A DNA stretch of 64,000 nucleotides from a virus (IMGVR_UViG_3300048881_000780); one strand, 5' to 3'; numbered from the stretch's first letter, positions 7,846 to 56,540 are shown. A program made the numbers and translations. Notes: generated from the letters alone by a model not told the origin.

Positions 7846-8313
7846 ATGAAATATTTTGCGGGAATAGGCAGTAGAAAAACTCCTAATCATATTCTAGAGA
7901 TTATGGAGCAGATATCTGAAAAATTTACAAGTAAAGAATATACCCTTCGCTCTGGAGGGGCCTTGGGTGCGGATCAAGCATTTGAAAGAGGATCGTCTCT
8001 TAAGGAAATATTTTTAGCTAAAGACGCTACTCAAGAGTCAATTGATCTAGCTCTAGAGTATCATCCAAACCCTGGGGCCCTTAGAAATATGGGGAAATAT
8101 GCTGTTGGCCTGGCCGGTAGAAATATGCAAATAGTTTTAGGTCTAAACCTTGATAAACCTGTGGAGTTTATAATTTGTTACACAAAAGATGGTGAATTAA
8201 CAGGAGGAACTGCTCATGCTATCAGACTGTGTCTTGATAGGGGTATTCCAGTTTTTAATCTTGGAATACCTGGAGAGCTTGAAAAGTTAAGACTACTCTA
8301 TTTAAACTTATAG
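7846..8313 (+). CDS. SLOG/DprA-like nucleotide-binding protein
   Basis: FAGIGSRKTP, LRSGGALGAD, GGTAHAI, IPVFNL motifs. Confidence 0.75.
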   Translation: MKYFAGIGSRKTPNHILEIMEQISEKFTSKEYTLRSGGALGADQAFERGSSLKEIFLAKDATQESIDLALEYHPNPGALRNMGKYAVGLAGRNMQIVLGLNLDKPVEFIICYTKDGELTGGTAHAIRLCLDRGIPVFNLGIPGELEKLRLLYLNL

Positions 8314-8532
8314 AATTTCTAATGATTGCAACCAAAGATTATTCTTCTTTTTTAATTTTGGATACCTAGTTTGAAAAGTCTTTTTATTTCTTTTAATCAA
8401 TTCTCTTTTTATTAGCAGAATAGACTCCTCTGTTTTTTCTTTAAACTCCAGAGAGTCTCCATTTTTTGCTTTAATTAAAAAATCTAAGAGTATCTTTAAT
8501 TCATATGTTGTCATCTTTAATAATTCTTTCAT
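8308..8532 (-). CDS. hypothetical protein with C-terminal NxW tag
   Basis: Ends NLWLQSLEIL*. Confidence 0.6.
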   Translation of the reverse strand: MKELLKMTTYELKILLDFLIKAKNGDSLEFKEKTEESILLIKRELIKRNKKTFQTRYPKLKKKNNLWLQSLEIL

Positions 8533-8582
8533 TAGCTACATTTTAATTGATTTTACGATAAGTTATAGTAGGAGTAATAAAA

Positions 8583-9119
8583 ATGAACTTATCAAAGAGG
8601 ATTTTTAAAATACTGAACGAAATTAGAGACTTTTCAAAAAATGAACGTATGGATAATTTTGTCGAAATCGAAGGATTGAATCCATTAGATATTATTGGTA
8701 ATTATTTTGAAAATTTAATGGATGAGTTTGAGTATCTTAGTTTGGATGCTTATAATCAGACCTCTTTTGATAAATTTTTAAATGAGCTATCTAAACATGA
8801 CGATGTGGAGAGTTTGATATTTTTAAAAGAAGAAGAAATAATTAGAAGAATACTTATCCCTCAAATAGACTCTAATGAAATACATGTAGATTCACACCAA
8901 GCTGTTCTCGATTTGTATGAAAACTCTATACGATTAAATTTGGCATTTAATGAACTTCTAACCAGTGGGGTCCATAGTGATTCTCTAGAGGAGCAATTAC
9001 TCTCAAAGATAGTTGGGCTTATATCTGACGGTTACGATTTTCTTGATGCTATAAATGAAGTAGAGGGACAAACTGGAATATCATCTCATATTTTAAAAGA
9101 AATCTATGATAATAATTAA
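8583..9119 (+). CDS. hypothetical acidic protein
   Basis: AGGAG RBS. Confidence 0.65.
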   Translation: MNLSKRIFKILNEIRDFSKNERMDNFVEIEGLNPLDIIGNYFENLMDEFEYLSLDAYNQTSFDKFLNELSKHDDVESLIFLKEEEIIRRILIPQIDSNEIHVDSHQAVLDLYENSIRLNLAFNELLTSGVHSDSLEEQLLSKIVGLISDGYDFLDAINEVEGQTGISSHILKEIYDNN

Positions 9120-9329
9120 ATTTATATCGATAGAGTTGAGGTAAGCAATAAAATAGAAGATCCTATAAAGAACATCACCTTATGCGCCATCATTAAATCA
9201 GGCAGACCGCTATCCATCATTTTAAATATAAATAATGAAAATGATAAAAAAGTAGAAAACAATAGTAACCTAATTAGATTATTCATATTTCTATTTTAAC
9301 AGAGAAGTCAGTGCTGGAGAGGTATTCTA

Positions 9330-9614
9330 TCAATTATAGAAATCGCTTTTAGTAAAGCTGGTGCCAAAGGCCTCATTTATAATATCTAACATTTCATTAG
9401 ATGACCTTGGATATACTTTCCAATTGGCCGTTTCAATAAGATTTTTGACATCTATATCTAATATCTCTGTTTCACCTGTAGATATGTCTGATCTAAATCT
9501 AATACCTTCAAATAATTCCCAGTATGGACGATCATTGATAATAGTAATAATTTGACCTTCATCTTCCAGAATTAAGAATTCACGATCTTTGTATTTAAAA
9601 TAATTCATTATCAC
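9330..9614 (-). CDS. hypothetical protein
   Basis: GAGG RBS. Confidence 0.6.
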   Translation of the reverse strand: MIMNYFKYKDREFLILEDEGQIITIINDRPYWELFEGIRFRSDISTGETEILDIDVKNLIETANWKVYPRSSNEMLDIINEAFGTSFTKSDFYN

Positions 9615-9635
9615 CTCTGTATAGATAACTTATCG

Positions 9636-13022: not shown

Positions 13023-13157
13023 ATGTCAAATAGAACTATACAAGAAGATTGTTCTCACTCTTTTAACTGTGATGGTTTTTGCGAGTACTGTGGAATATCA
13101 GAGCACGATTACGAATCATCATGCTGTAGCGGCGAGGAGATTGGTCGTTATGAATAA
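13023..13157 (+). CDS. small Cys-rich protein (44 aa, absent from ORF track)
   Basis: GAGG RBS; MSNRTIQEDCSHSFNCDGFCEYCGISEHDYESSCCSGEEIGRYE. Confidence 0.5.
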   Translation: MSNRTIQEDCSHSFNCDGFCEYCGISEHDYESSCCSGEEIGRYE

Positions 13158-14424
13158 GACTTCTCCCTTTATTAGTACATGGAAAATTATAGATAAGAGA
13201 ATTACTTTTCCTTTTAAGAGAAGTGCTAATATTAATTGCACTATCGACTGGGGAGATGGAACGCAATCTCATGTTACTAACTACTTTGATAAGAATAATA
13301 CTCACATCTATAAAGAAAATGGTGAGTATGAAATTAGTATTGTCGGAGATATATTCGAGCTTGATATAAAGCTTGAGGAAAGTGCGAGAATAGTTAAAGT
13401 TTCATCTATGGGTAGATGCTCTTGGAGAGTTTTTAAAGCAATGTTTTGTGAATGTCTGTATCTAAGAGAGTTTAACTCTGGAGACTGTGACTCTTCCTAT
13501 ATAAGCGATATGTATTCTATGTTTAACGGTTGTAAGAGCTTAAAAAAGGTAGTTATTGATTCTTTTGATACTTCAAATGTTTTTGATATGGAATTTATGT
13601 TTGCTAATTGTGAAAACCTAAATTCCTTGCAATTAAAAAACTTTACAAATGAAAGTGTTGTTACAATGCGAGGAATTTTTGAAGGACTCTCAAAGTTAAA
13701 AAGATTAAACTTATCAGACTTTAAGACTCCTAGGGTGCAGATTTTTTCTAGTATGTTTTCGAGTTGTACCAGCTTAAAGAAACTAAACTTAAAATCCTTT
13801 AATACGAGTAATGCTAAATCAATGATTAGTATGTTTAATGCTACTGTATCTCTAGAAAGTCTCGATATCTCTACTTTTCAAACTGGAAACGTTATAGATA
13901 TGCGCTCCATGTTTAATCGCTGCTATGTAAGTGAGCTTAAACTAGATCACTTTGACACGTCATATGTATCATCGATGGAAAATATGTTCAGAGGAATGAT
14001 CAATCTCAAAGAGATAGATATTTCAAATTTTAATATTAAAAATGCTCTATCTCTTCATGGATTATTTAATTCTTGCTCTAGTCTTAAAAAAATAAATTTT
14101 GGAGAAATTAATACCTCAAGAGTTAGAGATTTAAGCTATATGTTTAATAATTGTAGCTCTCTTGAATCCTTGGACTTATCTACCTTTGAGACCTCAAGAG
14201 TTCAATCGATGGATAATATGTTTTACTCTATTCCAGAAAAGTTAAAGGTTGATATAACTCACTTTGATTTTGATAAATTAGAGCAAAATCCGTTCAGGTT
14301 CACTAAAAGTAAGCTTATAATAGATAGTAGGTATAAAAAACACTTTAAAGAGTCTGAAGCTAAAGGTGTAGAATTTGGGGTCAATAAGAGAAGGCATCCC
14401 TGGTTCAAATCATTGTACGCTTAA
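13150..14424 (+). CDS. PKD + DUF285/BspA-type LRR protein
   Basis: IDWGDG module, FDTSNVxxMxxMF repeats, GAGGAG before ATG 13150; ends HPWFKSLYA. Confidence 0.9.
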   Translation: MNKTSPFISTWKIIDKRITFPFKRSANINCTIDWGDGTQSHVTNYFDKNNTHIYKENGEYEISIVGDIFELDIKLEESARIVKVSSMGRCSWRVFKAMFCECLYLREFNSGDCDSSYISDMYSMFNGCKSLKKVVIDSFDTSNVFDMEFMFANCENLNSLQLKNFTNESVVTMRGIFEGLSKLKRLNLSDFKTPRVQIFSSMFSSCTSLKKLNLKSFNTSNAKSMISMFNATVSLESLDISTFQTGNVIDMRSMFNRCYVSELKLDHFDTSYVSSMENMFRGMINLKEIDISNFNIKNALSLHGLFNSCSSLKKINFGEINTSRVRDLSYMFNNCSSLESLDLSTFETSRVQSMDNMFYSIPEKLKVDITHFDFDKLEQNPFRFTKSKLIIDSRYKKHFKESEAKGVEFGVNKRRHPWFKSLYA

Positions 14425-18314: not shown

Positions 18315-18533
18315 TTAACCAAACCATTTACGATAAAGTATTGTGGCATCTCTCGTATCCCTTTCAGTTTCTCCAAACTGAGAGGTGTAATCCGAACCAA
18401 ACATTGAAATTTGATCTCTCAGATAGGACATAAAATCCCTCTTAGATTTACTAGCTGAATCACCACTTATAAAAAGAGCGATCATTTGAATAATGAATTC
18501 TTCATCAATATAGTGATCTACTCTAACTCTCAC
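18315..18533 (-). CDS. hypothetical protein
   Basis: 72-aa ORF in operon. Confidence 0.55.
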   Translation of the reverse strand: MRVRVDHYIDEEFIIQMIALFISGDSASKSKRDFMSYLRDQISMFGSDYTSQFGETERDTRDATILYRKWFG

Positions 18534-18778
18534 TAGGATACCTTTTTAAAGTTGTTGATCATGCGAATACCAAAACTCTCATCATGGGGAGTTTTAAATT
18601 TAACAGCAGTTTTACCGCTCTCCCATGGTAAAATGTCGATAACTTCTAGGTGAGTCTGTTCTTTTACTTCTTTTTGGTAATATCCTTCATCTTTATTATT
18701 TTTTAAAATAACGATATCCCCGATCTCAATAGCATCGGAAGATCCCATCTCTAATGAAGTAACCCATGAGTTTGACAT
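18533..18778 (-). CDS. hypothetical protein
   Basis: Likely start MSNSWV after GGAG. Confidence 0.55.
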   Translation of the reverse strand: MSNSWVTSLEMGSSDAIEIGDIVILKNNKDEGYYQKEVKEQTHLEVIDILPWESGKTAVKFKTPHDESFGIRMINNFKKVS

Positions 18779-19814: not shown

Positions 19815-20834
19815 CTACGCCAATGCCTCTAACCAGGTATTAATGGGTTTGCTCTCACTGGCCCCATCAAATCCTTTAATAAACCTAAGAGACTTGGAAT
19901 TAAACGTAATATTACTTTTACACTGGTACAAAAAAGACTTTCTCTTAATATCATCAGAGATCGTAAATCCTGAGAAATTTACCTTTGGGGCCACAAAACC
20001 ATTAAACATATCTGCGATAGTGATTGCGGAATTGGATTTAAATCCACGTAGATCTAAATTTCTTTCAAGCGAACACCTTGAGAACATTTCTATAAAGTTT
20101 TGAGCTTTTTCAGTTTTAAAATTTGATAGATTAAGATTTTTAAAACTAGAATCCTGAAACATTCTCTCCATGGTTTTACAATTTCTAGTATTGAAATTTG
20201 AAAGGTCTAAATAATCTAAGTTAAGTTGAGAAAACATCGCAGTCATACAAAGAACTTTTTCTGTGTTAAATGATTTGATGTTCAGCGATTCGAGACTGTG
20301 CATCTCAGAAAACATATGTCCCATATAGAGAACATTAGCTGTGTTAAATGAACTTAAATCTAACCTTTCTAGAGAATAGAGTTCACTAAAGGTACCTGAC
20401 ATATCGTTTACATTTGAGGTGTCAATATTGAGAGTTAATTCCTTAATATTATGACATCTAATAAACATTTCAGAGATACTACTAACATTACTAGTATTAC
20501 AAGTTCCAGAGTTAAATTTTTTGAGATCGAAACAATTTGCAAAGCTATACCATAGATTTTCCCATTCGCAATCGCCAAGATTTTTTACCTCTATAAGGGT
20601 GGCACCTTCAACATTTGAAGATACCCAACTCTTTAAGTTTCCAGCTATTGAAATGGTATAAATACCAGCTGTCTTATAGGTGTGGGTTGCCTTGACGTTA
20701 CCAGTAATATTTTCTAAGTCAGATCCGTCTCCCCAGTCTATTAGTAAGTTGACATCTATTCCATTATTAGTGGGGAGAGTGATCTTATTGTCGCTACCAA
20801 TAGTTTGCCAGCAACTTACAAATGATTCTTTCAT
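19815..20834 (-). CDS. PKD + DUF285-type LRR protein
   Basis: IDWGDG, LGDCEW, repeats; ends NTWLEALA. Confidence 0.9.
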   Translation of the reverse strand: MKESFVSCWQTIGSDNKITLPTNNGIDVNLLIDWGDGSDLENITGNVKATHTYKTAGIYTISIAGNLKSWVSSNVEGATLIEVKNLGDCEWENLWYSFANCFDLKKFNSGTCNTSNVSSISEMFIRCHNIKELTLNIDTSNVNDMSGTFSELYSLERLDLSSFNTANVLYMGHMFSEMHSLESLNIKSFNTEKVLCMTAMFSQLNLDYLDLSNFNTRNCKTMERMFQDSSFKNLNLSNFKTEKAQNFIEMFSRCSLERNLDLRGFKSNSAITIADMFNGFVAPKVNFSGFTISDDIKRKSFLYQCKSNITFNSKSLRFIKGFDGASESKPINTWLEALA

Positions 20835-20857
20835 TATTAACTTCCTTGTTGTGCTTA

Positions 20858-21967
20858 TCATGAAATAGACTCCAGCCAAGTGTTTTTAGTATCCTCTTGG
20901 TTTTGGTCTGTTGTGAATTGACTTCCTTCCTTGAAGTAATCTATATTTTTCTTATATCTCGTTTTTATTTTTACATTTGCTTTACTCTTATAGTGAACAA
21001 AGTTATGAAAGTTTGCGACAGCGCTAAATCTAAAATTTGATAAATCTATCTCTTTTAAATTATCTGAATAGAAAAATATTGCACCAAAATCTACGACATT
21101 AGATGTTTTAAATGATCCTAGATTTACTTCCTTTAAATTATCACAACATTTAAACATTGCTCTCATATCAGTGACACATTCAGTATTAAAGCTCGATAGA
21201 TCTAGCGACACTAGGCCCCTGCACTTTTCAAACATTCCCTGCATATCAAGGGCGCTATCAGTTCGCATGTGATCTAGATTTAAATTCTGTAAATTATAGC
21301 AATTTTTAAACATTCCTCTGAAACTTAAAACACTACCAGCATCAAATCTCTCTAAATCTAGAGAGAGTAAGTTATTCATGCCAGAGAACATTCGAGACAT
21401 TGTTGTAACATTAAAAACATCTAAGTTCCTTAAGTCGAGATGATTTATTCCGGATTTTCTAAACATAACTTTCATATTTTCAACAAATGAAGTATTCAAA
21501 TTATCAATATTTAAATTATTTAAATTAATAGTTTTGTGAAATAATCCTTCCATATTAATAACAGAGCTCGAGTCAAAGGTGGAGAGATCTATATCTGTAA
21601 GATTCTTACACCCATGAAACATATTTTTCATAGATGTAACATTTGAAGTATTACAGCTGCCACTGTTAAATTTTGTCAATGATTTACAGTTTTCAAAGGA
21701 TCCTGCGAAAGTTATCCAATCGCAATCACCAAGATCAAAAACTTTTACTACTTGTATGGATGGATAATCTAAAATATGCATGGCCTGAATCTTACCATAG
21801 AAGCAAATGGTATACTCTCCATTTTCTTCGTAGGTATGATCTAGCTCATTACTGGAAATGATTCCATCACCCCAATCTATAGCGAACTCTACGTCTGTTC
21901 TATGAAACTTAAGAGGGAGAGTTACACTACCCTTTTTCACACGCCAACTGGCCCTAAATGGTTTCAT
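20858..21967 (-). CDS. PKD + DUF285-type LRR protein
   Basis: IDWGDG, LGDCDW, repeats; ends NTWLESIS. Confidence 0.9.
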   Translation of the reverse strand: MKPFRASWRVKKGSVTLPLKFHRTDVEFAIDWGDGIISSNELDHTYEENGEYTICFYGKIQAMHILDYPSIQVVKVFDLGDCDWITFAGSFENCKSLTKFNSGSCNTSNVTSMKNMFHGCKNLTDIDLSTFDSSSVINMEGLFHKTINLNNLNIDNLNTSFVENMKVMFRKSGINHLDLRNLDVFNVTTMSRMFSGMNNLLSLDLERFDAGSVLSFRGMFKNCYNLQNLNLDHMRTDSALDMQGMFEKCRGLVSLDLSSFNTECVTDMRAMFKCCDNLKEVNLGSFKTSNVVDFGAIFFYSDNLKEIDLSNFRFSAVANFHNFVHYKSKANVKIKTRYKKNIDYFKEGSQFTTDQNQEDTKNTWLESIS

Positions 21968-22070
21968 TTTATCTATATTAATAACAAGCCTCTCTAGATT
22001 TGATATTAACATATTTTTTATTTTCTAACAAGTTGCGTTAAAAACAATCAATAATTAGACATAGTTAGAA

Positions 22071-22512: not shown

Positions 22513-23454
22513 TCACTCTAGAGATTCTAGCCAGGTATTTCTTATTGATCCTGAGATTGCATTTGGAATATCGTGAAAATACAATTTCCCATTCTTTACT
22601 GGTAATAGTATTTTACAGAGGACATCACAAAATATACCAATATTAGATCCAGAAAAGTCAAAAGAGTATAACTTAAGTTTTTTAAGAGAGCTACACCCTC
22701 TAAACATATAATCCATATCATTTGCATTGCTAGTATCAAAGAAATCTACGTTTAATCTTAAAAGAGAATTGCAATGAGTGAACATATTTCTAAATGATTC
22801 TACACTGTAAGTCTTAAAGTGGTTTAGATCTAGAGACTCTAGACTGTGGCAATCTTTAAACATCTTCTCCATTGATTCAACTTTTGAAGTATTAAAATTT
22901 GATATATCTAAGAAGTTAAGAGCACTAGCTCCTTCAAACATCGACTTCATTGATTTAGTGTTTTTGGTACAAAATGAAGATAAGTCTAGATATTTAAGCC
23001 TTTTACAATTGGAAAAAAGATGCCTCATATTCTTTACATTATATGTATGAGAGTTCGATAAAGAGACTCTCTCTAGAGATTCACACTCATCAAACATAAA
23101 GCTCAAATCTTTTACTGTTTTTGGAATTGCTCCATTATAACTTTCGAGCATTTTACAACCATAGAAGGCATTTGATAAATCCTGCCAATGGCAGTCACCT
23201 AAATGATGAACGGCCAAAAGTTCACACGATGAGACTTTATAAGATCTCCAAAGTCCTAATTTTCCAGATATTGTTAATGTGTAATTGCCATTAATTTCAT
23301 ATATATGAACGGCGTTTGGGTCATCGTAGGAAGTTATATGATCACTTTTCCCATCGCCCCAGTCGACAGTAAAGTCGTAATCAAACCCCTCAAATAGAGG
23401 GAGAGCTAAAACTCTCTTTTGGACTAGCCAGGTACTAACAAAGTTTTTTGACAT
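22513..23454 (-). CDS. PKD + DUF285-type LRR protein
   Basis: VDWGDG, LGDCHW, repeats; ends NTWLESLE. Confidence 0.9.
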   Translation of the reverse strand: MSKNFVSTWLVQKRVLALPLFEGFDYDFTVDWGDGKSDHITSYDDPNAVHIYEINGNYTLTISGKLGLWRSYKVSSCELLAVHHLGDCHWQDLSNAFYGCKMLESYNGAIPKTVKDLSFMFDECESLERVSLSNSHTYNVKNMRHLFSNCKRLKYLDLSSFCTKNTKSMKSMFEGASALNFLDISNFNTSKVESMEKMFKDCHSLESLDLNHFKTYSVESFRNMFTHCNSLLRLNVDFFDTSNANDMDYMFRGCSSLKKLKLYSFDFSGSNIGIFCDVLCKILLPVKNGKLYFHDIPNAISGSIRNTWLESLE

Positions 23455-23568: not shown

Positions 23569-24513
23569 TTAGCTAATGGCCCTAAGCCAACTATTACAGT
23601 TTTTATTATCCGTGACGATATTAAGATTTGATGATGCAAACATCTCTAGATACTTCCTCGATACCTTCACTAAAGCATTAGAGTTAGTTATTTTCGATTT
23701 TGCTAGGGACTCATCGAACTCGAAGTTTTTAAGATTAATTTTCTTAAGTTTAGGAGTGTCATAGAACGCCTTTGTAATATCTTTAAGTTTGGAGAACTTT
23801 CTGTGTCCAAAGTTGATGGATTCGAGGTTCCTACAGTTAAAAAATGCTCTATTCATATGATTAATTTTATGGGGCCTAAAATTTGATAAATCAAGTTTTC
23901 TTATTCCCGAAGAGCTAAAGACGCACGAAAAGCCAATGAGATTTTCCGTATTAAATTCACTAAGATCGACTTCTCTTAAACTTTTAGTACCGTGAAATGC
24001 TGAAAACATTTGAGTTAAAGAAGATGAATTTATTTTACCAAAATCAACATTTTCTAACTTTTCGCAGCCACGAAACAAGCTAGACATAATTTTAACATTA
24101 GAAAAATCAAAGGTTGATAAATCTGCGGTTTCAAGTTTTTCACATTCTGAAAATAAACCGTTTAAATTCTTTATTTTGATCGTATCACAATTGCCTGCGA
24201 CAAACTTTTTAAGGTTAATACAGTCACTAAATAAAGATCCGACATTATACCAATTTAGATCACCAAATTGAAGAACCTCAATCAACTTAGCTTTATCTCT
24301 TAGCTTTATAAATAGTCCTCTGTGAATTGACCCTGATACTCTTATTGTGTAAATTCCAGGTTCTTTATACTTATGAACAGCTGAGTTCTTGCTATTTTGA
24401 TCAATACTCCCATCACCCCAATCAATTGTAAGCCCTGAGGCATCTTGTAAGAAAAAAAGCGTCTCATTACTATTGGTAATTTGCCATCGACTAATAAAAT
24501 CAAAGTTACTCAT
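23569..24513 (-). CDS. PKD + DUF285-type LRR protein
   Basis: IDWGDG, repeats; ends NSWLRAIS. Confidence 0.9.
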   Translation of the reverse strand: MSNFDFISRWQITNSNETLFFLQDASGLTIDWGDGSIDQNSKNSAVHKYKEPGIYTIRVSGSIHRGLFIKLRDKAKLIEVLQFGDLNWYNVGSLFSDCINLKKFVAGNCDTIKIKNLNGLFSECEKLETADLSTFDFSNVKIMSSLFRGCEKLENVDFGKINSSSLTQMFSAFHGTKSLREVDLSEFNTENLIGFSCVFSSSGIRKLDLSNFRPHKINHMNRAFFNCRNLESINFGHRKFSKLKDITKAFYDTPKLKKINLKNFEFDESLAKSKITNSNALVKVSRKYLEMFASSNLNIVTDNKNCNSWLRAIS

Positions 24514-25365: not shown

Positions 25366-25729
25366 AGTTTCAAGTATTACAGAAGCTAGAGATATAATTG
25401 ATAAATTTCACGCTCGAAAAATAATGATTCATAATGGGAAAAGGTGGAGTGTTGCCTCAGTGAAAAGAATTATCCCTATGATTAGTAATTACCCAAAAGG
25501 GCCAATAGATGATATTGAAATCCTAATTAATAAAGAAAAGAATCACTACTTTTCAGCACTCTGTTTATTTGGAAAAAGATCATGGGTTAAAGATATTAGG
25601 ATTTGTGATGATTATAATAGAAATTCCCTAAAGATGGTAGCAATTCATCCTACTCCTAAAAATGATGAGATGATCATTAGAGTGGCCAGATTTATTAAAT
25701 TAATTTACTTAAAACAAAAGACGAAATGA
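25355..25729 (+). CDS. hypothetical protein
   Basis: 124-aa ORF overlapping neighbours. Confidence 0.6.
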   Translation: MQNRVSSITEARDIIDKFHARKIMIHNGKRWSVASVKRIIPMISNYPKGPIDDIEILINKEKNHYFSALCLFGKRSWVKDIRICDDYNRNSLKMVAIHPTPKNDEMIIRVARFIKLIYLKQKTK

Positions 25730-26574
25730 GTTCTTTTAGATTTGTAATAAATATTCCCAATGATGATACAGTCGTAAGTATGAGAGTTTATGAAGAGTAT
25801 CGTTATAGTTTTAAAGTTAATTGGGGAGATGAATGCTTTGGTAGTTACACTTATCGAAACAAGAGTCGCAACATAATACATCATACTTTTGAAAAAGCTG
25901 GAGAATATACTATTGTAATGAGTGGCAGGATTGGCAAAATCAGAGCGGAGGAAACTTTATTTAAATATATAACTGAGGTTATAGATTTAGGAGATTGTAA
26001 GTGGCAGGATTTATCATTCATGTTCGCTGAATGTAATAATATGGTTAGATTTAAAGGTGGCATTACTTCTGATGTTAAATCAATGGATCATATGTTCACA
26101 GATTGCAAGAAACTGAGTTTTTTAGATATTTCTAGTTTTGACACTTACAATGTAACTAATATGAGAGGTATGTTTACAGGACTCTCCAAACTCAGTCATA
26201 TTGACGTTAGTCACTTCAACACCTTCAATGTTACGGATATGTCGCATATGTTTAGAGGTATGAAATCACTTAGACATTTAAGCATATCTAACTTTCGATT
26301 TAAAGGCCCTGTCAATATGGGCCTTAGTTTTGATGATTTGAACTCCTGTGAGGTATTGGATCTAAGACACTTAGATTTTAGTAAGATAGATCTATACTTA
26401 ATTAATGATGTTAGAAGTTATCAGAACTGTTTTAAGTATGGACCAAAGAAGGTAATTGTTAAGCTAGAGGATTTTTGTAAGTACTTTAAGGGTAATCCGC
26501 GCGTTTACGGATTAGTTGAAGATAGAAGAAAGAATAGCTGGTTAAACTCGCTAGATATCGAGGATTTCAAATGA
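25726..26574 (+). CDS. PKD + DUF285-type LRR protein
   Basis: VNWGD, LGDCKW, repeats; NSWLNSL near C-terminus. Confidence 0.9.
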   Translation: MSSFRFVINIPNDDTVVSMRVYEEYRYSFKVNWGDECFGSYTYRNKSRNIIHHTFEKAGEYTIVMSGRIGKIRAEETLFKYITEVIDLGDCKWQDLSFMFAECNNMVRFKGGITSDVKSMDHMFTDCKKLSFLDISSFDTYNVTNMRGMFTGLSKLSHIDVSHFNTFNVTDMSHMFRGMKSLRHLSISNFRFKGPVNMGLSFDDLNSCEVLDLRHLDFSKIDLYLINDVRSYQNCFKYGPKKVIVKLEDFCKYFKGNPRVYGLVEDRRKNSWLNSLDIEDFK

Positions 26575-38835: not shown

Positions 38836-40263
38836 ATGACAACTAGACCTTTCAAATTCAAAATTAAAGTAAATAGAGATGAGATATTCGCATTTAATTT
38901 ATCAAAAGAAGAAGTATCATATGACTTCACTATTGATTGGGGTGATGGGGTTAAAGGCTCTGTAAATAGTAAATCCTGCAAGTGTGAACATACCTATAAA
39001 AAGGGTGGCGAATTTACTATTACAATTAATGGTAATGTAGAGTCTATAAACTTCGAGAATGAGTCAAAAAGGCTGATTATAGAAGTTCTAGATTTAGGCG
39101 ATTGCAACTGGAAGAGTCTTTATTTTATGTTTGGCAATTGTTCTAACTTGACCTCATTTTCTGGTGGAATAACTAATCGAGTTGTAGATATGGCCTGTAT
39201 GTTTTACGAGGCTAGCTCTCTTAAGAGATTAGATTTATCAAGCTTTGACACCTCTAATACTCGGGATATGCAATCTATGTTTGCAGAAATCAGCTCTTTA
39301 GAGGAATTAGATATATCAAATTTTGAAACATCTAATGTGACGGATATGCGCTTTATGTTTTCAGGAGCTACCTCTCTTGAAAAATTAGATCTATCCAGTT
39401 TTGATACTTCTAAAGTAACAGATATGAGAAACATGTTTAATAGAGCTAACTCTCTAGTAAATTTAGATTTATCCAGCTTTGATACTTCTAATGTTAGAAA
39501 TATGAGCTATATGTTTAATGAATCTAGCTCACTTAAGGATTTAAATTTATCAAATTTTAATACATCTAAAGTCACGGATATGAGTCATATGTTCTATGGA
39601 TCGTGTTCATTTAAGAATTTGAATATATCAAATTTTAATACCTCTAAAGTTCAAGATATGAGTCATATGTTCTATGAAGTTAGCTCTCTAGTGGATCTAG
39701 ATTTATCCAGTTTTGACACTTCTAATGTTATAAACATGAGCTACATGTTTAGTGGAGCTACAGATTTAATAAATCTAGATATATCAAGTTTTGAAACCAC
39801 TGAAGTTGAATATATGAAATGTATGTTCCATGGAGCTAGCTCTATAGTAAGCTTAGATTTATCAAGTTTTAATACATCTAAAGTGACGAATATGAGTTAT
39901 ATGTTCTGCTACACTACCTCTTTAAGAAATTTAGATATAACTGGTTTTAGTACTTTTGAGGTAAAAGATATGAGCTTTATGTTTCATGGAGCAAGTTCTC
40001 TAGTGAATTTAGATTTATCAAATTTTGATACTTTTAATGTTTCTGACATGTCTAGTATGCTCGCTGGTGCGACATCTATTTCAAGTTTAGATTTAACAAA
40101 TTTTAACTTTGATGAAGTTGATGTGAATATGTTTGAGCTTAATGGTCCTCTAGAAATTATCGTTAAGAAGAAATTTAAAGAAAAATATTTTAAAGATAGC
40201 GAGAACGTAATATTTAAAACACTTAATTTAGTGTCCAACTCATGGATAGATGCTATTTCTTAA
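38836..40263 (+). CDS. PKD + DUF285-type LRR protein (longest repeat array)
   Basis: About 12 26-aa repeats; ends NSWIDAIS. Confidence 0.93.
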   Translation: MTTRPFKFKIKVNRDEIFAFNLSKEEVSYDFTIDWGDGVKGSVNSKSCKCEHTYKKGGEFTITINGNVESINFENESKRLIIEVLDLGDCNWKSLYFMFGNCSNLTSFSGGITNRVVDMACMFYEASSLKRLDLSSFDTSNTRDMQSMFAEISSLEELDISNFETSNVTDMRFMFSGATSLEKLDLSSFDTSKVTDMRNMFNRANSLVNLDLSSFDTSNVRNMSYMFNESSSLKDLNLSNFNTSKVTDMSHMFYGSCSFKNLNISNFNTSKVQDMSHMFYEVSSLVDLDLSSFDTSNVINMSYMFSGATDLINLDISSFETTEVEYMKCMFHGASSIVSLDLSSFNTSKVTNMSYMFCYTTSLRNLDITGFSTFEVKDMSFMFHGASSLVNLDLSNFDTFNVSDMSSMLAGATSISSLDLTNFNFDEVDVNMFELNGPLEIIVKKKFKEKYFKDSENVIFKTLNLVSNSWIDAIS

Positions 40264-40554: not shown

Positions 40555-41051
40555 TGGACTTTTTAAAGAAGCTTGAATTTTTAATTACTCAAAATAAAGA
40601 GAATTTACTCGATTCACATTTGAAGTATGGAGGAGTTCGAGTGACCTGTATTTCACTATCAAATGACAAGAGTTCAATAGAAGTGGAGCTAGATACTGGA
40701 TCACTAGCTTTTTCTCTAGAAGTTGATCACGAAAGTTGTTTTGAGTGTGGAAATAGTGAATTTCATGCAACTCAAGAATACCGAGTAAATATCATTGTTA
40801 ATCAGAACGGAGAGTTTTTAAGAAATAGATTTAATGATATGGAGCGATCTCTAGAAGATGCTGATGTACCCAAGGGTCCATTTAGTTGTACAAAGTGCAG
40901 TAAACAATATAGTGAAATAAAAGATGGCGCCATATTAGATAGGATGATTGAAATTACTGAAGAGAAGCTACGAGAACTAGGAGTAGGCCTCTTTAATAGT
41001 TATGATAAATTTGAAGAAGCGGTATTTAACCATGAACAAAGTAACAACTAA
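40554..41051 (+). CDS. hypothetical protein with Zn-ribbon
   Basis: CFECG and CTKC pairs. Confidence 0.65.
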   Translation: MDFLKKLEFLITQNKENLLDSHLKYGGVRVTCISLSNDKSSIEVELDTGSLAFSLEVDHESCFECGNSEFHATQEYRVNIIVNQNGEFLRNRFNDMERSLEDADVPKGPFSCTKCSKQYSEIKDGAILDRMIEITEEKLRELGVGLFNSYDKFEEAVFNHEQSNN

Positions 41052-41691
41052 GCATACCTCTTTTGAGTTTGAAGTAAATTTATCTAGTGGTAATTTCGTT
41101 ATGTTTCATGTAGATCGAAACTTTGATTTCAAATTTAATGTTGATTGGGGTGATGGTAAGCGTAATTATTATCACCGTGAAAAAGACGCTAGTACTATAA
41201 GTCATAAGTATAGAAATAGTGGATGCTATAAAGTTAAAATATCTGGAGATATCTACAAACTTAGGTTCGGAGTAAGAACTAAGGGTTTTATAACTAGAGT
41301 TTTCAATTTAGGTGATTGTGAGTGGATTGATACATCTTCAATGTTTGAAAATTGTGAAAAACTAATGAGTTTCGCTGGTGGCGCAACTGATGAGGTGACT
41401 GATATGTCTGCAATGTTTGCTGGTTGCTTTAGTCTAGTATTATTAGACTTGAGTACTTTTAATACATCAAACGTAGTATCAATGGACAGGATGCTGGAAA
41501 AGGTTTCCTTTACTCCCCCATTAGATCTCACTTCATTTGATTTTTCTAAGTCATCATTAGATAGATTTCTATATCTTGGTCCAGGAAAAGTGTTTGTCAG
41601 TAAAGTAGTAAAAAATAAGTATTTTAAAGGAATTGATGCCGTTAAATATAAGACAGGCACCAATTCATGGATAGAATCATTAAGTAATTAA
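41032..41691 (+). CDS. PKD + short DUF285-type LRR protein
   Basis: VDWGDG, LGDCEW; ends NSWIESLSN. Confidence 0.88.
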   Translation: MNKVTTKHTSFEFEVNLSSGNFVMFHVDRNFDFKFNVDWGDGKRNYYHREKDASTISHKYRNSGCYKVKISGDIYKLRFGVRTKGFITRVFNLGDCEWIDTSSMFENCEKLMSFAGGATDEVTDMSAMFAGCFSLVLLDLSTFNTSNVVSMDRMLEKVSFTPPLDLTSFDFSKSSLDRFLYLGPGKVFVSKVVKNKYFKGIDAVKYKTGTNSWIESLSN

Positions 41692-41706: not shown

Positions 41707-42225
41707 CTATTTCAGTGCTTTTAACCAGGCGTTTTCATTAGTTATTTCGATATTATTTTTTTCTTCAATGACTATCCCAAATAGATCATAGAATTCCTGA
41801 TCTGTTTGTTCATACCAACGATCTGACACAATATTTACCGTTTGATGAAATTCCTCTTCACTTGGATCTAGGTCTTTAAAATGCAACTCTTCTGGTAAAT
41901 ATTCACTGGCCCATTCAGATAGAGAATACTTATTGTCAATTCCATTGTGACAAAAGAATCCCGATTCCTCTCCGTCATCAGTATAACCAACGATATTTCC
42001 AATATATTCTAATTCCTCATTGATAGCGTTAATTACTCTATGAAAGTTTCTCCATTGGTCCATATCAATATGAGAAATTTCTGCTTTTATATCAAAGATA
42101 AGATCTTTATTTTTAGGTAATGGTGACTCTTTTCTAAACCAATTTGTTATAATCTCTCTTGCTCGATCATACGAATATTGGTCTTTAAATTGGATTTTTC
42201 CATTCCAGTAACTATATCTTGCCAT
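41707..42225 (-). CDS. hypothetical protein (family B) with C-terminal NxW tag
   Basis: Ends NAWLKALK; resembles 43217..43741 and the ORF at 63592. Confidence 0.7.
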   Translation of the reverse strand: MARYSYWNGKIQFKDQYSYDRAREIITNWFRKESPLPKNKDLIFDIKAEISHIDMDQWRNFHRVINAINEELEYIGNIVGYTDDGEESGFFCHNGIDNKYSLSEWASEYLPEELHFKDLDPSEEEFHQTVNIVSDRWYEQTDQEFYDLFGIVIEEKNNIEITNENAWLKALK

Positions 42226-42237: not shown

Positions 42238-43203
42238 TTAATTAAGAGAGTTCAGCCATGCATTTTCTTTTGATGCTACATACTCCCGATATTTTATATT
42301 TTCATATTCTTTGAAATATAATTTTTTATATCTTTTTTTTACAATTATTTCACTTGGACCATTTTCGCAGAAGGCCTCTAAGTTTCCATTATCAAATGAG
42401 AATCCGTATAAATCTAAACTAATTAAAGAGTTTGTACCTCTTAACATCTGGCGAAAATCCGCAACTCTGTCTGTAATGAAACTTGATAAATTTAAGCTCC
42501 CAAGAGCTCTAGTTTTGCAAAACATACTGTTCATATTGGTAACGCTGGAAGTATCAAATTTTGATAAATCTAAACTCGTTAGAGAGTGGGCATCATGAAA
42601 CATGTAACTCATATCTAAGACATTGGAAGTGTTGAAGCTAGAAAGATCTAAATCAACGAGTGAGTATGTATCACAAAACATGTATCTCATATTGGTGACA
42701 GATGAAGTGTTAAATGATGATAAATCTATTTTTGCAATCGAGTATATATCGCAAAACATATGGCTCATATTTGTAACAGACGACGTATCAAATGACGATA
42801 AATCTATTTTTACAAGTGATTTTGCATTAACGAACATATGACTCATGTCGGTAACATTTTTTGTTACCCCTCCCGCCAATGAGGTTAAGTTGTAACAACT
42901 AGAAAACATCTTATTAAAACTAGTCCAATTACAGTCACCTAAGTCTATGACTTCTAAAATACAAGGTCTTGACTCATTTTTAAAATTTATTGATCCGATA
43001 TCTCCCGTAATTTTTATAGTGTACTCTCCCTCTTTGTCATATAGATGGTTACAATTAAGGGAGCCTTTGTATCCTGTTTGACTGATATTTCCATCTCCCC
43101 ACTCAACAAAGAGGAATTTCTTATCATCACTTGAGTTTTCTATAGAAAAAGAGAAAGACTTTAGTTTATCTATTTTTATTTTAAATATAAATGGTTTTTT
43201 CAT
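42238..43203 (-). CDS. PKD + DUF285-type LRR protein
   Basis: VEWGDG, LGDCNW, repeats; ends NAWLNSLN. Confidence 0.92.
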   Translation of the reverse strand: MKKPFIFKIKIDKLKSFSFSIENSSDDKKFLFVEWGDGNISQTGYKGSLNCNHLYDKEGEYTIKITGDIGSINFKNESRPCILEVIDLGDCNWTSFNKMFSSCYNLTSLAGGVTKNVTDMSHMFVNAKSLVKIDLSSFDTSSVTNMSHMFCDIYSIAKIDLSSFNTSSVTNMRYMFCDTYSLVDLDLSSFNTSNVLDMSYMFHDAHSLTSLDLSKFDTSSVTNMNSMFCKTRALGSLNLSSFITDRVADFRQMLRGTNSLISLDLYGFSFDNGNLEAFCENGPSEIIVKKRYKKLYFKEYENIKYREYVASKENAWLNSLN

Positions 43204-43216: not shown

Positions 43217-43741
43217 CTATTTTAGAGACTGAAGCCAAGAGTTAATTTTAGTATCCCTGTTTATTTCAAGGAAGTCTTTTTCATTTAGATTTAACCAGTG
43301 GTCAATAATTTCTTCTTTTATACTTTTAATTTCACTCTCGCTCTTTTTAAAACTCAGATTTAACCCCTTAGTTCTTCCCCATTTTTTAAGGTGACAAGTT
43401 TTGTATTGACCGTTAAAGATTATATTTCCTTGAAAAATATTCATCTCTTTTCTATTGCAAACGCTTTTTATAAAATGACTGTCACTTAGAGTGATTATTT
43501 TTTTCAGCGAGTTTTTAAATTTTTGAATATTTTTAAGAAAGTTTTTATCGCGACTATTTAGTTTTTTAATTTCCATTCCTAAATTAAATATATACTCATT
43601 ATTTAATTCCATTGTATGAATATTACTAACTAAAGATGAATCAAAATTATCCCTGAATATAGATACGGCCATATCTAATTTCTTTTTCGATATAAATCTC
43701 AGAATTCCTGTGTATACATACTTTGAATCTACATTATTCAT
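43217..43741 (-). CDS. hypothetical protein (family B) with C-terminal NxW tag
   Basis: Ends NSWLQSLK. Confidence 0.7.
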   Translation of the reverse strand: MNNVDSKYVYTGILRFISKKKLDMAVSIFRDNFDSSLVSNIHTMELNNEYIFNLGMEIKKLNSRDKNFLKNIQKFKNSLKKIITLSDSHFIKSVCNRKEMNIFQGNIIFNGQYKTCHLKKWGRTKGLNLSFKKSESEIKSIKEEIIDHWLNLNEKDFLEINRDTKINSWLQSLK

Positions 43742-45300: not shown

Positions 45301-45566
45301 TGAAAGATTTAACTGATTACCAAAAGAGAGCTCTAGAAGAGCATAAAGAGTCCCTTACTGAACTTGGGTATACCCATCGAGGTGAAGAGGTTAAGGACGT
45401 CATTTTCGAGGTTCTAGATACCCTTGAGAGAAGATATAAGTTTGATCTCGAGATAAATAACGACTTAGAAGATGAAGTTGAATCAATAATTCATCAATAT
45501 ACTTTAGAGAAGTTAATTGAACTTGAAGAATTCAAGAAAGTGCTCAAATCGAGGACTCTTAAATGA
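45300..45566 (+). CDS. hypothetical protein
   Basis: Coupled ORF. Confidence 0.6.
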   Translation: MKDLTDYQKRALEEHKESLTELGYTHRGEEVKDVIFEVLDTLERRYKFDLEINNDLEDEVESIIHQYTLEKLIELEEFKKVLKSRTLK

Positions 45567-45997
45567 AAACGAGATATCCAAGTATAGATAAAATTTTAAA
45601 AGAAATTAAGAAGCCTACTTTGATCGCAATAAATAAAGATCCCAATATCTCTAACGAAGAAATTTTAGACGATTTCTATGAAGTAGTAAGTGATCCAATG
45701 TGTGAAATTAATGAACTCTGTGATTTAGAGCTTATTATTGAGCGCAAGAACTCTGAGCCTCGTGTTTTAGTTAGGATTGTAGATGAACAACTAGAAATTC
45801 AGCTACTCGATAGTTGCGATCGCTGTGCTGGTACAGGCCAGAGTATGGAGATGGTGTGCTATGGGGATATGCCGATTGAAAAATATGGAGACTGTCCCGA
45901 TTGTGAGTCTACTGGATTTATCTATCCCTACAAAAAAGAGCTAAAACCTAAGGATGAATTACACCCTAATTTATGGATCAGATCTCTACTGTCCTAG
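45563..45997 (+). CDS. protein with DnaJ-type Zn finger and C-terminal NxW tag
   Basis: CDRCAGTG and CPDCESTG; ends NLWIRSLLS. Confidence 0.7.
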   Translation: MKTRYPSIDKILKEIKKPTLIAINKDPNISNEEILDDFYEVVSDPMCEINELCDLELIIERKNSEPRVLVRIVDEQLEIQLLDSCDRCAGTGQSMEMVCYGDMPIEKYGDCPDCESTGFIYPYKKELKPKDELHPNLWIRSLLS

Positions 45998-53948: not shown

Positions 53949-54182
53949 ATGATTGAAAGAGAAGTTATTAATTCAAACAATAATGTATCACTAATTAAAG
54001 AAAACCATGAAGATGAATTCTGCTACGTTGTAGAAATCATCGGTACAGATAACTCTAAGAGTTTCTTTGATTGTGGTGAATCAAAAAATAAGGCCTCTGA
54101 TTTATACGATAAATTATCAAGTATTTCATACAGTAAGAGTGTGGATGTTAAGATGAGTGAAAACTCTCATCTTGTGGCATAA
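53949..54182 (+). CDS. hypothetical protein
   Basis: GAGG RBS. Confidence 0.6.
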   Translation: MIEREVINSNNNVSLIKENHEDEFCYVVEIIGTDNSKSFFDCGESKNKASDLYDKLSSISYSKSVDVKMSENSHLVA

Positions 54183-54258
54183 GTTATTAAATGAGCGCAA
54201 AAGAGAATATTCTTAAAATAGCAACTAATAGCGTGATCTAAAAGACTGGGAGTAAGAA

Positions 54259-54480
54259 ATGGAAGAATTAGATTATTACCAACGAAAATATGACCTCGAT
54301 GTCGAAATGTCTCATTTTAGTGAGTTCTCATCTCTTAAAGGTGTTATATCGGTTGAAGGTGATACATTCTTTGCTACTGTAGGCGAAGGAGATGCTCAGT
54401 GTATTGGATCTGGAAGCACTAGGGCACACGCACTTGTAGACTGTATGAATAATTTTTGGACAGAGAAAGCTAAAGCTTAA
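54259..54480 (+). CDS. hypothetical protein
   Basis: GGGAG RBS. Confidence 0.55.
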   Translation: MEELDYYQRKYDLDVEMSHFSEFSSLKGVISVEGDTFFATVGEGDAQCIGSGSTRAHALVDCMNNFWTEKAKA

Positions 54481-54901
54481 TGATGCGACCCTTCTCTCTT
54501 TTAAAGTATTTATCAAAATCTGGAAACTTTCCTCTGATATTTGATAAGTGAGTGCTTAATAACTGTCCTGAAAGTGGCAAGTGAATATCATCTTCGTCCT
54601 TGCTTAATGCCACTTTCAATATTCTTATTTCATTATTTGTGAATTTTATTAACTCGCTCTTATACTTTAGGGTTTTATTATCAACGTCTAAAATCATTCT
54701 CTTATACTTAATTATTGGAGATCCCTTTTTTACCAAGTCAGATATTTCATTAATTTCTAAAAGCAGTGAGTTCTTTGTGCTCTTCTTTAGTTCGGTAGAA
54801 TTTTTTATTGCAAAGGATAACTTCTTTAGTTTTGAATCTAAGTTACTTTTATTATTCTTATTCTCTATGGTGGAAACTAATACTCCCCTATCTTTTATCA
54901 T
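54470..54901 (-). CDS. protein with OmpR-like winged-helix C-terminus
   Basis: KFTNNEIRIL and THLSNIRGK. Confidence 0.55.
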   Translation of the reverse strand: MIKDRGVLVSTIENKNNKSNLDSKLKKLSFAIKNSTELKKSTKNSLLLEINEISDLVKKGSPIIKYKRMILDVDNKTLKYKSELIKFTNNEIRILKVALSKDEDDIHLPLSGQLLSTHLSNIRGKFPDFDKYFKREKGRIIKL

Positions 54902-55076
54902 CGAAAAACTCCTTATATAAATAATATCTAATCAAAGGCATAAATCAAATAGAAATCACTTAAGAAATCTTAAGTGAATAATTCTTGCAACTTGCCGTAA
55001 TATAAGAGGAAAATTAGATATATTGAGGCCTAAATAAATTAATGTTAGTATCTCTATATTAGAAGAAGGAGTTTTT

Positions 55077-55973
55077 ATGAGTTTTAAAAAGTTTTTATCA
55101 TATTTTTTTCAATATCTATTTGTCTTAATTATTGTTGTAACCCCTTTTGGTGCTCAAGAGACTCCAAGTATTAAATATATACTACTATTGCTCATTCCCA
55201 TGTTGATTATGTCACCTCACCTAATTTCTAAATTAGAGTCAAAGTTGAAACTCAATATTAAGACCAAGCATAGAGTAATTGTTTCAATGATTCTCTACTC
55301 TACTTTTAGCTCATTTATTATTAACGAAGATGCTAATAGAAGAGAAATTGCTAAGGAGAGTCAAGATCGTGAAGATTTTACAAAAAATAAAAAAGAAAAA
55401 TTAGATTATATTAAAAGGTTAAACTCTCAAAAGAAATATGATCGTGCATTAGTTGTAATTAAAGAATATGAAAAATTTAATGATGACGATGTAAAGAAAC
55501 TAAGAAGAGAGTTGAATTCAAAAATTAGAAAAAGAGATATTAAAAAATTAGATAAACTTGCTAGAAGTACAAGTTCAAAACAACCAAAGCTTCTACTTGA
55601 TACATATAGAAAGCTTTTAAAGCTCGATCCTCAAAATAAGAGATACAAGAAGAAAGTAGCCCATTATCAAGAAGTGGTAGATAAAATCATTATGGAAAAG
55701 AGATTAGCAGATGTTCGAGCAAAGAAGATTTCTAATCAGTTCAGTGGTTGGGATGGCGCCCATATAAAATTAGAGAGACTGGTTAAAGAAAATCTAAAAG
55801 ACCCTGATTCTTACGAACACGTAAAGAGTCTATATAATGATCACAAAACGTATTTAATAGTAGAACTTACTTATAGGGCCAAGAATAGTTTTGGTGCAAA
55901 GGTTCTTGGTAGCGTTCAAGCAAAAGTTGATATTAATTCAGGTACAGTATTAAAAATAATTAATCAAAAGTAA
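55077..55973 (+). CDS. membrane protein with basic helical domain
   Basis: N-terminal TM segments; LKDPDSYEH..YRAKNSFGA C-terminal domain. Confidence 0.7.
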   Translation: MSFKKFLSYFFQYLFVLIIVVTPFGAQETPSIKYILLLLIPMLIMSPHLISKLESKLKLNIKTKHRVIVSMILYSTFSSFIINEDANRREIAKESQDREDFTKNKKEKLDYIKRLNSQKKYDRALVVIKEYEKFNDDDVKKLRRELNSKIRKRDIKKLDKLARSTSSKQPKLLLDTYRKLLKLDPQNKRYKKKVAHYQEVVDKIIMEKRLADVRAKKISNQFSGWDGAHIKLERLVKENLKDPDSYEHVKSLYNDHKTYLIVELTYRAKNSFGAKVLGSVQAKVDINSGTVLKIINQK

Positions 55974-56540
55974 CTAAATCAGGGACTTGATCCAAGGGTT
56001 ATCAGGTCCCACTTTAAAAGGGCCCGAACTCTCTCTATTTTCAAAACCAAAGATATTATCCAATTCGCTCCATTTGATATTTTTAATAACTTCACTAACC
56101 ATGACCATTTTATCTCTCATACCTACTGACATTAGAAAGTCTTCTTTTGATATAGTGAAATCTAGTTTTTTCTGTTTCTTGCACTCATTTGGTGATAATT
56201 TTCTATAGAAGTAAATTAAGTTCGTTTCTCTGTAAAAGGCAATAACTTGTGCACTCGATAGCCTGTTAAATGCAAATAAATCTGCCAATACTCGGATGAG
56301 ATTATCACATGACTCAAATATTTTATCTGAAGAATCCATTAGCCCAATTTTTTCATATGCATCCGAATGGATTATCTTACAAACTTCTGCAAGATCAATT
56401 ATCATTTTATCAGTATCTACCTGATAAGAAATTCCAAGTTCTCTATTTAAATAATTTCGATCATCAAAAAGATCGTTAAGATTGGAATATTTAAAATGTC
56501 CTTTTATATGTAAAATACTCACTATAGCTCCCCTTTTCAT
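55974..56540 (-). CDS. hypothetical protein with C-terminal NxW tag
   Basis: Ends NPWIKSLI. Confidence 0.65.
   Translation of the reverse strand: MKRGAIVSILHIKGHFKYSNLNDLFDDRNYLNRELGISYQVDTDKMIIDLAEVCKIIHSDAYEKIGLMDSSDKIFESCDNLIRVLADLFAFNRLSSAQVIAFYRETNLIYFYRKLSPNECKKQKKLDFTISKEDFLMSVGMRDKMVMVSEVIKNIKWSELDNIFGFENRESSGPFKVGPDNPWIKSLI

Follow-up and report, generated by a model that had tools for sequence, protein, structure and literature searches.

A seven-residue peptide, N-x-W-[LI]-x-[SA]-[LI], is carried, nearly always at the extreme C-terminus, by at least 17 soluble proteins belonging to about six unrelated families (ten LRR proteins, three members of family B, one zinc-finger protein and three orphans) and encoded within a single stretch of a bacterial mobile element. 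This stretch of 64,000 nucleotides, referred to here as the window, is part of a 361-kb low-GC element that is itself a singleton, and the collections that we searched hold no relatives of the tagged tail. Judged from the sequences, the consensus appears sharply defined, and we found no published description of it, in agreement with an earlier note on this DNA, which knew of no bacterial signal described with it. The tag may well be a peptide for docking or addressing that a single shared receptor reads, an explanation whose chances we rate as slightly below even.

Frequency and conservation of the tag

Across the approximately 120 genes of the window, the pattern [NH]-x-W-[LIFVM]-x-[SA]-[LIV] has 16 matches, 15 of which lie one to six residues before the stop codon (one residue in nine copies, two in four, three in one and six in one); about one gene in eight of the 64-kb stretch is tagged. 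The amino-acid composition of 120 genes, called greedily and totaling 19,549 aa, predicts 0.16 matches anywhere and 0.007 within the last 13 residues, and over 2,000 shuffles the motif appeared on average 0.15 times and at most three times. If each family is counted only once, five independent C-terminal carriers remain, for a Poisson probability of about 1e-13. All 15 of the C-terminal motifs listed in the earlier note are present at the genes that it named, and the comparison that it had proposed, of terminal with internal and shuffled frequencies, comes out in favor of the C-terminus within the window. The 16th match in the window is an N-terminal copy, within the ORF 18533-18826(-), and a 17th copy ends an ORF that starts at position 63592 and crosses the right edge of the window, its tag being read in the Logan contig L003.

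Over these 17 copies, the Trp is conserved in all, the Asn in 16 and the Ser or Ala in all, and four positions of the tag are nearly invariant. No degenerate position is encoded uniformly (Asn is AAT in eight copies and AAC in six, positions 4 and 7 use six Leu and Ile codons, and position 6 uses either TCN or GCN), so that selection acts on the peptide. The DNA flanking the tag is not conserved, and the earlier claim that conservation resides at the peptide level is thereby upheld.

Carrier proteins and tag structure

The main carriers are ten DUF285/BspA-type LRR paralogs, an expanded family that this giant mobile element tags at the C-terminus. The six paralogs that were scanned against Pfam (those starting at 13069, 22513, 25726, 36884, 41002 and 42238) all exceed the curated cut-off of 25 bits for PF03382 (DUF285), with E values ranging from 4.6e-49 to 2.3e-8. 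The forward strand encodes 13069..14424 (DUF285 E=4.6e-49; tag HPWFKSL at 14395-14415, with His for Asn, two residues before the stop), 25726..26574 (E=3.5e-18; NSWLNSL at 26533-26553, six residues before the stop), 36884..37768, which is situated between a CobT-like and a CobS-like gene (E=5e-30; NLWINSL at 37739-37759), 38836..40263, of 475 aa (NSWIDAI at 40237-40257), and the short paralog 41002..41691 (E=2.3e-8; NSWIESL at 41662-41682). On the reverse strand are 19815..20879 (NTWLEAL at 19821-19841), 20858..22012 (NTWLESI at 20864-20884), 22513..23454 (NTWLESL at 22519-22539; Pfam DUF285, E=1.3e-30, and LRR_5), 23569..24513 (NSWLRAI at 23575-23595) and 42238..43203 (NAWLNSL at 42244-42264). 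In the tails of these paralogs (the last 48-75 residues, which are only 14-45% identical), the Trp is the sole invariant column, which argues for sequence-specific recognition of the tag rather than for selection on a bulk physical property. Judging from the names and N-termini of the matches, BspA/DUF285 LRR relatives elsewhere are mostly exported surface proteins.

Family B is divergent and consists of 41707..42225 on the reverse strand (172 aa; NAWLKAL at 41713-41733), 43217..43741 on the same strand (174 aa; NSWLQSL at 43223-43243) and a third, forward-strand member cut by the window edge (63592..64000), whose full ORF of 176 aa (L003:1900-2430) has its tag at L003:2401-2421, two residues before the stop. 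We rejected the treatment of the 41707 and 43217 proteins as independent families, since both match the 63592 ORF (E=2e-5 and 4e-5, respectively). The zinc-finger carrier is a DnaJ-type CXXCXGXG protein of 144 aa (45563..45997, forward strand; NLWIRSL at 45968-45988), whose match to Pfam DnaJ_CXXCXGXG (E=1.7e-4) falls under the curated cut-off.

The three orphans, all on the reverse strand, are a basic helical protein of 74 aa (8308..8532; NLWLQSL at 8320-8340, three residues before the stop), a protein of 188 aa (55974..56540; NPWIKSL at 55980-56000) and a protein of 81 aa with the N-terminal tag (18533..18778; NSWVTSL at 18752-18772, residues 3-9). The real start of this last ORF is the ATG at 18778, since the longer version that begins with TTG contains a -35/-10 promoter, an operator and a GGAG ribosome-binding site; its copy of the tag is therefore N-terminal. 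The proteins at 8308, 41707 and 55974 have no Pfam or PHROG match, and among 5.8 billion proteins the family B protein at 43217 matched only itself.

Outside the tag, BLASTP after removal of the tails detected no similarity between families (E>0.4), as would be expected of the portable tag that the earlier note had envisaged; its claim of several unrelated families holds for about six, though not for each non-LRR carrier as a family of its own. Signal peptides and transmembrane segments are absent from all carriers, and the approximately 25 enzymes and regulators that Pfam annotates in the window and L003 all lack the tag. In signals of the sortase or exosortase type, a hydrophobic helix and then a basic tail come after the motif, and the proteins have signal peptides; no hydrophobic segment follows the tag.

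The AlphaFold model of the LRR protein at 36884..37768 (pLDDT 92 overall) has a confident LRR body, whose solenoid fold has TpLRR (6mlx) as its top Foldseek match, followed by other LRR proteins. The tag of this protein is modeled as a short helix (residues 287-293, pLDDT 53-58) that follows a disordered stretch, is detached from the LRR body and is positioned without confidence; in a low-confidence model of the family B protein at 41707, the tag likewise forms a helix preceded by disorder. The hydrophobic moment of the tags is 0.40-0.80 when they are treated as helices versus 0.11-0.53 when treated as strands. Both the variable stretch preceding the tag and its prediction as an amphipathic helix, which had been put forward earlier, are supported by these results.

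A candidate docking peptide and its possible destination

Under the docking explanation, an Asn cap would be followed by a two-turn amphipathic helix in which one face displays Trp3, Leu/Ile4, Leu/Ile7 and, at position 6, the small residue, and the tag would form the tail end of unrelated, soluble, non-enzymatic proteins, joined to their bodies by a flexible stretch. One common protein receptor, whose existence we infer, would recognize the tag, gather cytoplasmic cargo (the LRR binders, family B, the zinc-finger protein and the small orphans) and presumably hand it to one machine of the element. The machine that we prefer is a candidate type IV secretion system (T4SS), which the cargo would enter by way of a coupling protein or adaptor and which would export the carriers into a recipient or host cell. 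We offer the T4SS only tentatively as the destination of the tagged proteins.

Some T4SS signals are disordered and charge-biased tails, with a Glu-rich block in Legionella effectors and Arg-rich sequences in Agrobacterium Vir proteins, and others are whole domains, such as BID in Bartonella effectors and XVIPCD in the VirD4-binding effectors of Xanthomonas. The known signals lie at the C-terminus, and plasmid proteins are among the cargo of conjugative T4SSs (PMC8406263; PMC5802825). Like the tag, the signals of Legionella Dot/Icm, Agrobacterium Vir and F-type plasmid substrates are C-terminal and uncleaved and occur on many unrelated, soluble, Sec-less proteins; T4SS signals are expected within the last 20-50 residues, and 16 of the 17 tags are within 13 residues of the C-terminus. 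However, T4SS signals are loose, disordered, charge-biased tails or 100-aa domains, whereas the tag is a fixed seven-residue peptide, predicted to be helical, with an invariant Trp and one N-terminal copy, and the net charge of the tagged tails (-2 to +4) has no consistent bias. The single N-terminal copy and the singleton status of the element count against the docking explanation.

In its fullest form, which we regard as doubtful, the docking explanation describes an undescribed addressing system, in which a receptor of the giant element would read N-x-W-[LI]-x-[SA]-[LI] and load cytoplasmic binding proteins into a T4SS channel, delivering a protein arsenal to the recipient or host with or ahead of the DNA. 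If this were true, the tag would be the first T4SS signal to consist of a discrete linear motif; and if the receptor belongs to the T4SS, a giant conjugative element would be using a simple linear motif to transfer proteins in large numbers. Short portable address peptides, such as the encapsulin, microcompartment and T4 capsid tags, ease the study and engineering of sorting systems. The present tag identifies a cargo set without requiring knowledge of the machine, and its comparison with a Trp-to-Ala mutant provides a direct handle for fishing out the receptor.

Competing explanations

Instead of being cargo, the carriers might be substrate-recognition modules that the tag tethers to an AAA+ unfoldase or protease, or to the MoxR/VWA CobS/CobT-like pair, a role that we consider rather unlikely. 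LRR solenoids and DnaJ-type zinc fingers are typical binding modules, and the SspB tail has the same layout as the tagged tails, a flexible stretch and then a conserved short terminal peptide. The C-terminal peptide of SspB tethers this protein to ClpX, and the ankyrin proteins of poxviruses make similar use of an F-box-like (PRANC) motif at the C-terminus; both systems share with the tag the succession of binding module, flexible linker and short C-terminal tether to a machine, but neither has any sequence similarity to it. Six tagged genes are interleaved with a CobT-like VWA gene (34939-36690) and a CobS-like AAA+ gene (37823-38755), with which they seem to share operons; however, ten other tagged genes are far from this pair, nothing ties the tag to any ATPase, and the orphan carriers are without a recognizable binding domain.

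It is improbable that the tag concentrates the carriers at the cytoplasmic membrane by dipping into it as a short amphipathic helix, in the manner of the terminal membrane-targeting helices of FtsA, MinD, MreB and FtsY. The tag is, like those of FtsA and MinD, a terminal amphipathic helix by prediction, with the helical hydrophobic moment given above, and the end of E. coli FtsA has two S-W-[IL] turns that resemble it, G-S-W-I-K-R-L and N-S-W-L-R-K-E-F. This resemblance is absent from the earlier note. Helices of this kind function at either end of a protein (PMC6158289), and the single N-terminal copy is in keeping with that. But helices of the FtsA/MinD type are cationic, at least 8-15 residues in length and tolerant of substitution, whereas the tag has seven residues, nearly invariant at four positions and with large hydrophobic residues at only three; six of the tails are net negative, and acidic residues are common at positions 5 and 8. 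Moreover, binding to lipid needs no invariant Trp, fixed Asn or small residue at position 6.

Loading of the carriers into a particle or compartment, with the tag binding the inner face of a shell that resembles a capsid, an encapsulin or a microcompartment, is more improbable. The cargo peptides of encapsulins are C-terminal, as are the tails by which scaffolding proteins and prohead proteases bind the capsid. In encapsulins and microcompartments, as proposed for the tag, a flexible linker leads to a short terminal peptide through which diverse cargo docks to one shell protein; the peptides of microcompartments are short amphipathic helices that can be situated at either end (PMC4594438). Unlike the tag, however, microcompartment peptides have about 18 residues, and neither they nor the encapsulin peptides share its consensus. 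The capsid-targeting sequence of phage T4 is comparable in that dozens of small proteins, unrelated to one another, share one short portable peptide, but it is an N-terminal leader with another consensus and needs a prohead protease and a capsid, whereas the tag is C-terminal in all but one of its copies. We detected no shell, capsid, portal or terminase gene among the window ORFs scanned, which comprised 70 searched against Pfam and 30 against PHROGs (68 different ORFs, 50 of them searched against Pfam and 18 against PHROGs only), and none of the 10 ORFs of L003 searched against Pfam matched a shell protein. The S49 peptidase, with its N-terminal membrane segment and SohB-type N-domain, does not stand out as a prohead protease.

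That the tag marks its carriers for regulated degradation seems very improbable. It is terminal, exposed and hydrophobic, as a degron might be; but in degrons of the ssrA type the last residues are conserved and the free carboxylate lies at a constant distance, whereas both the residues after the tag and its distance to the carboxyl end (1-6 residues) vary, one copy is N-terminal, and the making of so many proteins only for their destruction is hard to rationalize.

Finally, the absence of any shared function, with the tag being a C-terminal cap inherited by the LRR paralogs and matched elsewhere by chance, is scarcely credible: although 10 of the 17 carriers are paralogs, in which the tag lies at a fairly constant 11-15 residues past a conserved cap, seven carriers are not LRR proteins, the chance expectation is the 0.007 given above, and AlphaFold leaves the tag undocked on the LRR body although no other part of the tail is as well conserved.

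A non-random peptide at protein ends

Across the six-frame open reading frames (ORFs) of the window, the pattern [NH]-x-W-[LIFVM]-x-[SA]-[LIV] was matched 16 times, and 15 of these matches are exactly the C-termini that the earlier note had listed as sharing the tag N-x-W-[LIF]-x-[SA]-[LI]. Its placement of the tag within six residues of the stop codon also stood: the stop follows after 1 residue in nine genes, after 2 in four others, and after 3 and 6 in one gene each. Given a greedy set of 120 genes (19,549 amino acids, with 92% of the window coding), composition would be expected to yield 0.16 matches overall and 0.007 in the last 13 residues, and 2,000 residue shuffles produced a mean of 0.15 matches and a maximum of 3, as against the 16 observed. 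With each paralog family counted only once, there are five independent C-terminal carriers, i.e., proteins bearing the tag.

That the tag is conserved at the level of the peptide had been claimed from its varying codons, and the wider comparison agrees: several codons are used at every degenerate position and the flanking DNA is unrelated, so it is the peptide that is conserved. Because neither the codons nor the flanks are conserved, we rejected a DNA-level element at the ends of genes, be it a terminator, a recombination site or a cassette that was copied recently. The tag is real, strongly non-random and portable.

The sixteenth match falls in a TTG-started ORF on the minus strand (18533-18826), the 5' part of which contains a TTGACA/TATTAA promoter, a copy of a palindromic operator and a GGAG ribosome-binding site; from these features we infer that translation really begins at the ATG at 18778. 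In the 81-aa product read from this ATG, the tag follows directly after Met-Ser, and it is thus an N-terminal copy. An additional copy comes from ORF 63592, which runs off the edge of the window and is covered by L003, a 30.7-kb Logan contig from run SRR35531919, where its 176-aa product has the tag two residues before the stop. Over 10.7 kb, another contig from this run (L001) has 100% identity to the window.

As far as our searches reach, this is an undescribed terminal peptide tag, of the same general kind as addressing and docking peptides already known. When the last 60 residues of one protein (P0002) served as query in a region-restricted search, nothing but the query itself came back, and among the 120 best relatives of one LRR carrier, the tag occurred in none save proteins of the same contig. 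When a profile of the last 75 residues (alignment A3) was searched against 1.84 billion representatives, the 150 best matches (360,477 amino acids) contained one internal motif and no C-terminal tag, the search being swamped by one LRR repeat kept in the profile. An alignment of the cap plus the tag (A5) had no relative in viral, genome or metagenome collections.

Carriers of the tag and its anatomy

The earlier note had assigned the tag to several unrelated families, and we now count about six: LRR proteins, family B, a zinc-finger protein, and the 74-aa, 188-aa and 81-aa proteins. The LRR carriers, ten in number, are of the DUF285/BspA type and have a PKD-like domain at the N-terminus. AlphaFold confidently models one of them as a solenoid (pLDDT 92), to which bacterial LRR proteins are the closest among solved folds. 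Because the product of 63592 matches those of both 41707 (E=2e-5) and 43217 (E=4e-5), all three constitute one divergent family, B. This family has no homolog beyond itself among 5.8 billion proteins and only weak, non-specific neighbours in the protein atlas, and its AlphaFold model (pLDDT 55) is too poor for a fold search. The remaining C-terminal carriers are 45563, which has a DnaJ-type zinc finger, 8308, a 74-aa basic helical protein, and 55974, a 188-aa orphan. After removal of the tails, all comparisons of non-LRR with LRR proteins gave E>0.4, and the non-LRR carriers outside of family B show no mutual similarity either, upholding the claim that the families are unrelated.

Signal peptides and membrane segments are absent from all carriers; the LRR relatives of carriers in other organisms are mostly surface proteins. 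Among the annotated enzymes and regulators of the window, the tag is absent from the M17 and S49 peptidases, the CobS/CobT-like pair, two histidine kinases, a response regulator, three DNA methylases or nucleases, a NADAR-Macro fusion, Ham1 and exonucleases, and it is also absent from the topoisomerase, ligase, SWIB protein and ion channel encoded on L003. Carriers are soluble, non-enzymatic and mostly binding-type proteins without export signals, and the set looks like cargo (effectors) or adaptors.

The sole untagged LRR paralog in the window (14449-15174, plus strand) is overlapped at its 3' end by a 467-aa ORF of unknown function (15143-16546, plus strand), and may be a truncation or fusion. 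A near-tag, D-N-W-L-F-S-L, with its Asn one position out of register, lies eight residues before the stop of a 165-aa protein with membrane segments (59585-60082, minus strand).

The fold of the LRR carriers closes with the conserved Y-F-K cap, made up of a strand and a short helix; the tag comes after a further 11-15 variable residues. Over their last 48-75 residues, the LRR paralogs are 14-45% identical, and the Trp is the sole invariant column. In the AlphaFold model of an LRR carrier, the tag forms a helix (residues 287-293, pLDDT 53-58) whose position relative to the body is not confident, and in the poor model of family B a disordered stretch leads into a short helix at the tag. The suggestion that this predicted helix is amphipathic is supported by its hydrophobic moment, which is 0.40-0.80 when computed as a helix versus 0.11-0.53 as a strand. 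When the tag is drawn as a helix, one face holds Trp3, Leu/Ile4 and Leu/Ile7, with the small residue of position 6 lying between these. The polar positions 2 and 5 can vary freely, and Asn1 sits where it could cap the helix.

Proposed docking and cargo addressing, and competing explanations

Four near-invariant positions, drifted codons, unrelated carriers and exposure on a flexible stretch are, taken together, the marks of a docking motif. We propose that the tag would act as a short linear motif whose docking groove lies on a single partner protein shared by the carriers; it appears to function whether placed N- or C-terminally. Our favoured reading is that the tag addresses cargo to a putative receptor. 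Among the putative machines of the element, we favour a type IV secretion system (T4SS) as the one that would handle this cargo, since C-terminal signals are what mark T4SS substrates for recognition and plasmid proteins are transferred by conjugative systems (PMC8406263; PMC5802825); however, no known T4SS signal is a discrete helical motif, as the tag is predicted to be. Signals of the type I, Sec, sortase and type IX kinds were rejected on anatomical grounds.

One candidate receptor is a stand-alone 93-aa SWIB/MDM2-domain protein (L003:7011-7292, plus strand; E=7e-14), encoded 4.7 kb beyond the right edge of the window; an amphipathic Phe/Trp/Leu helix is the ligand of this fold in MDM2. 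Its gene adjoins that of a type IA topoisomerase, with an Ion_trans/PKD-type channel and an NAD-dependent ligase nearby, and the protein and these neighbours are eukaryote-like or symbiont-like features. Another candidate is a small HEAT-repeat protein (53497-53877).

By analogy with SspB, the tag might instead be an adaptor tail that would tether carriers to a Clp or MoxR-type machine, which would account equally well for the binding modules of the carriers and for the six tagged genes that are interleaved with CobT/CobS-like genes. A tagged LRR gene lies between the genes for the CobT-like VWA protein (34939-36690) and the CobS-like MoxR AAA+ ATPase (37823-38755), both on the plus strand, and another follows; genes on Burkholderiaceae megaplasmids share about 50% identity with the CobS-like ATPase. 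A co-fold of the CobT-like and CobS-like proteins with the tail (alignment A3) scored 0.00 and was counted neither for nor against this explanation.

A helix that targets proteins to the membrane is also a genuine rival, because membrane-targeting amphipathic helices are functional at either terminus (PMC6158289) and the C-terminal end of E. coli FtsA has two S-W-[IL] turns resembling that of the tag. But for lipid binding, the tag is short and often acidic, and its conservation is far too strict. It is less likely that the tag loads carriers into particles (we found no convincing virion gene in the window, and the S49 peptidase resembles phage head-protease families in its S49 fold only), or that it is a degron or a mere LRR cap.

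Expression signals and neighbouring features

The window is an accessory region of an element whose whole contig is 361,129 bp, and its expression signals, sigma-70-type promoters and GGAG ribosome-binding sites, are bacterial. The palindromic operator TRAC-N7-GTYA occurs 31 times in the window, compared to 5.6 times in shuffles, and 27 of these sites (e.g., 12740, 27383, 34908, 43752 and 56565 among the 31) are intergenic and situated upstream of most operons. As the operator precedes tagged and untagged operons alike, a dedicated regulon for tagged genes was rejected, and these genes form part of the element's general programme.

Besides a SohB-type N-domain, the S49 peptidase (29190-30164, plus strand) has a membrane segment at its N-terminus; it is encoded downstream of an M17 leucyl aminopeptidase. 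Within the first LRR cluster, the NADAR-Macro fusion (16546-17523, plus strand; E=2.5e-43 and 4.3e-6) is likely an enzyme that reverses ADP-ribosylation.

A 135-nt intergenic repeat is present in three copies of 90-96% identity (43904-44047, 58314-58448 and, in reverse, 12827-12969) and had no match in Rfam. Its sequence includes a promoter-like box, a CA/GT-rich run and a stem that shows compensatory changes and precedes a T-run, and the repeat is probably a family of small-RNA genes.
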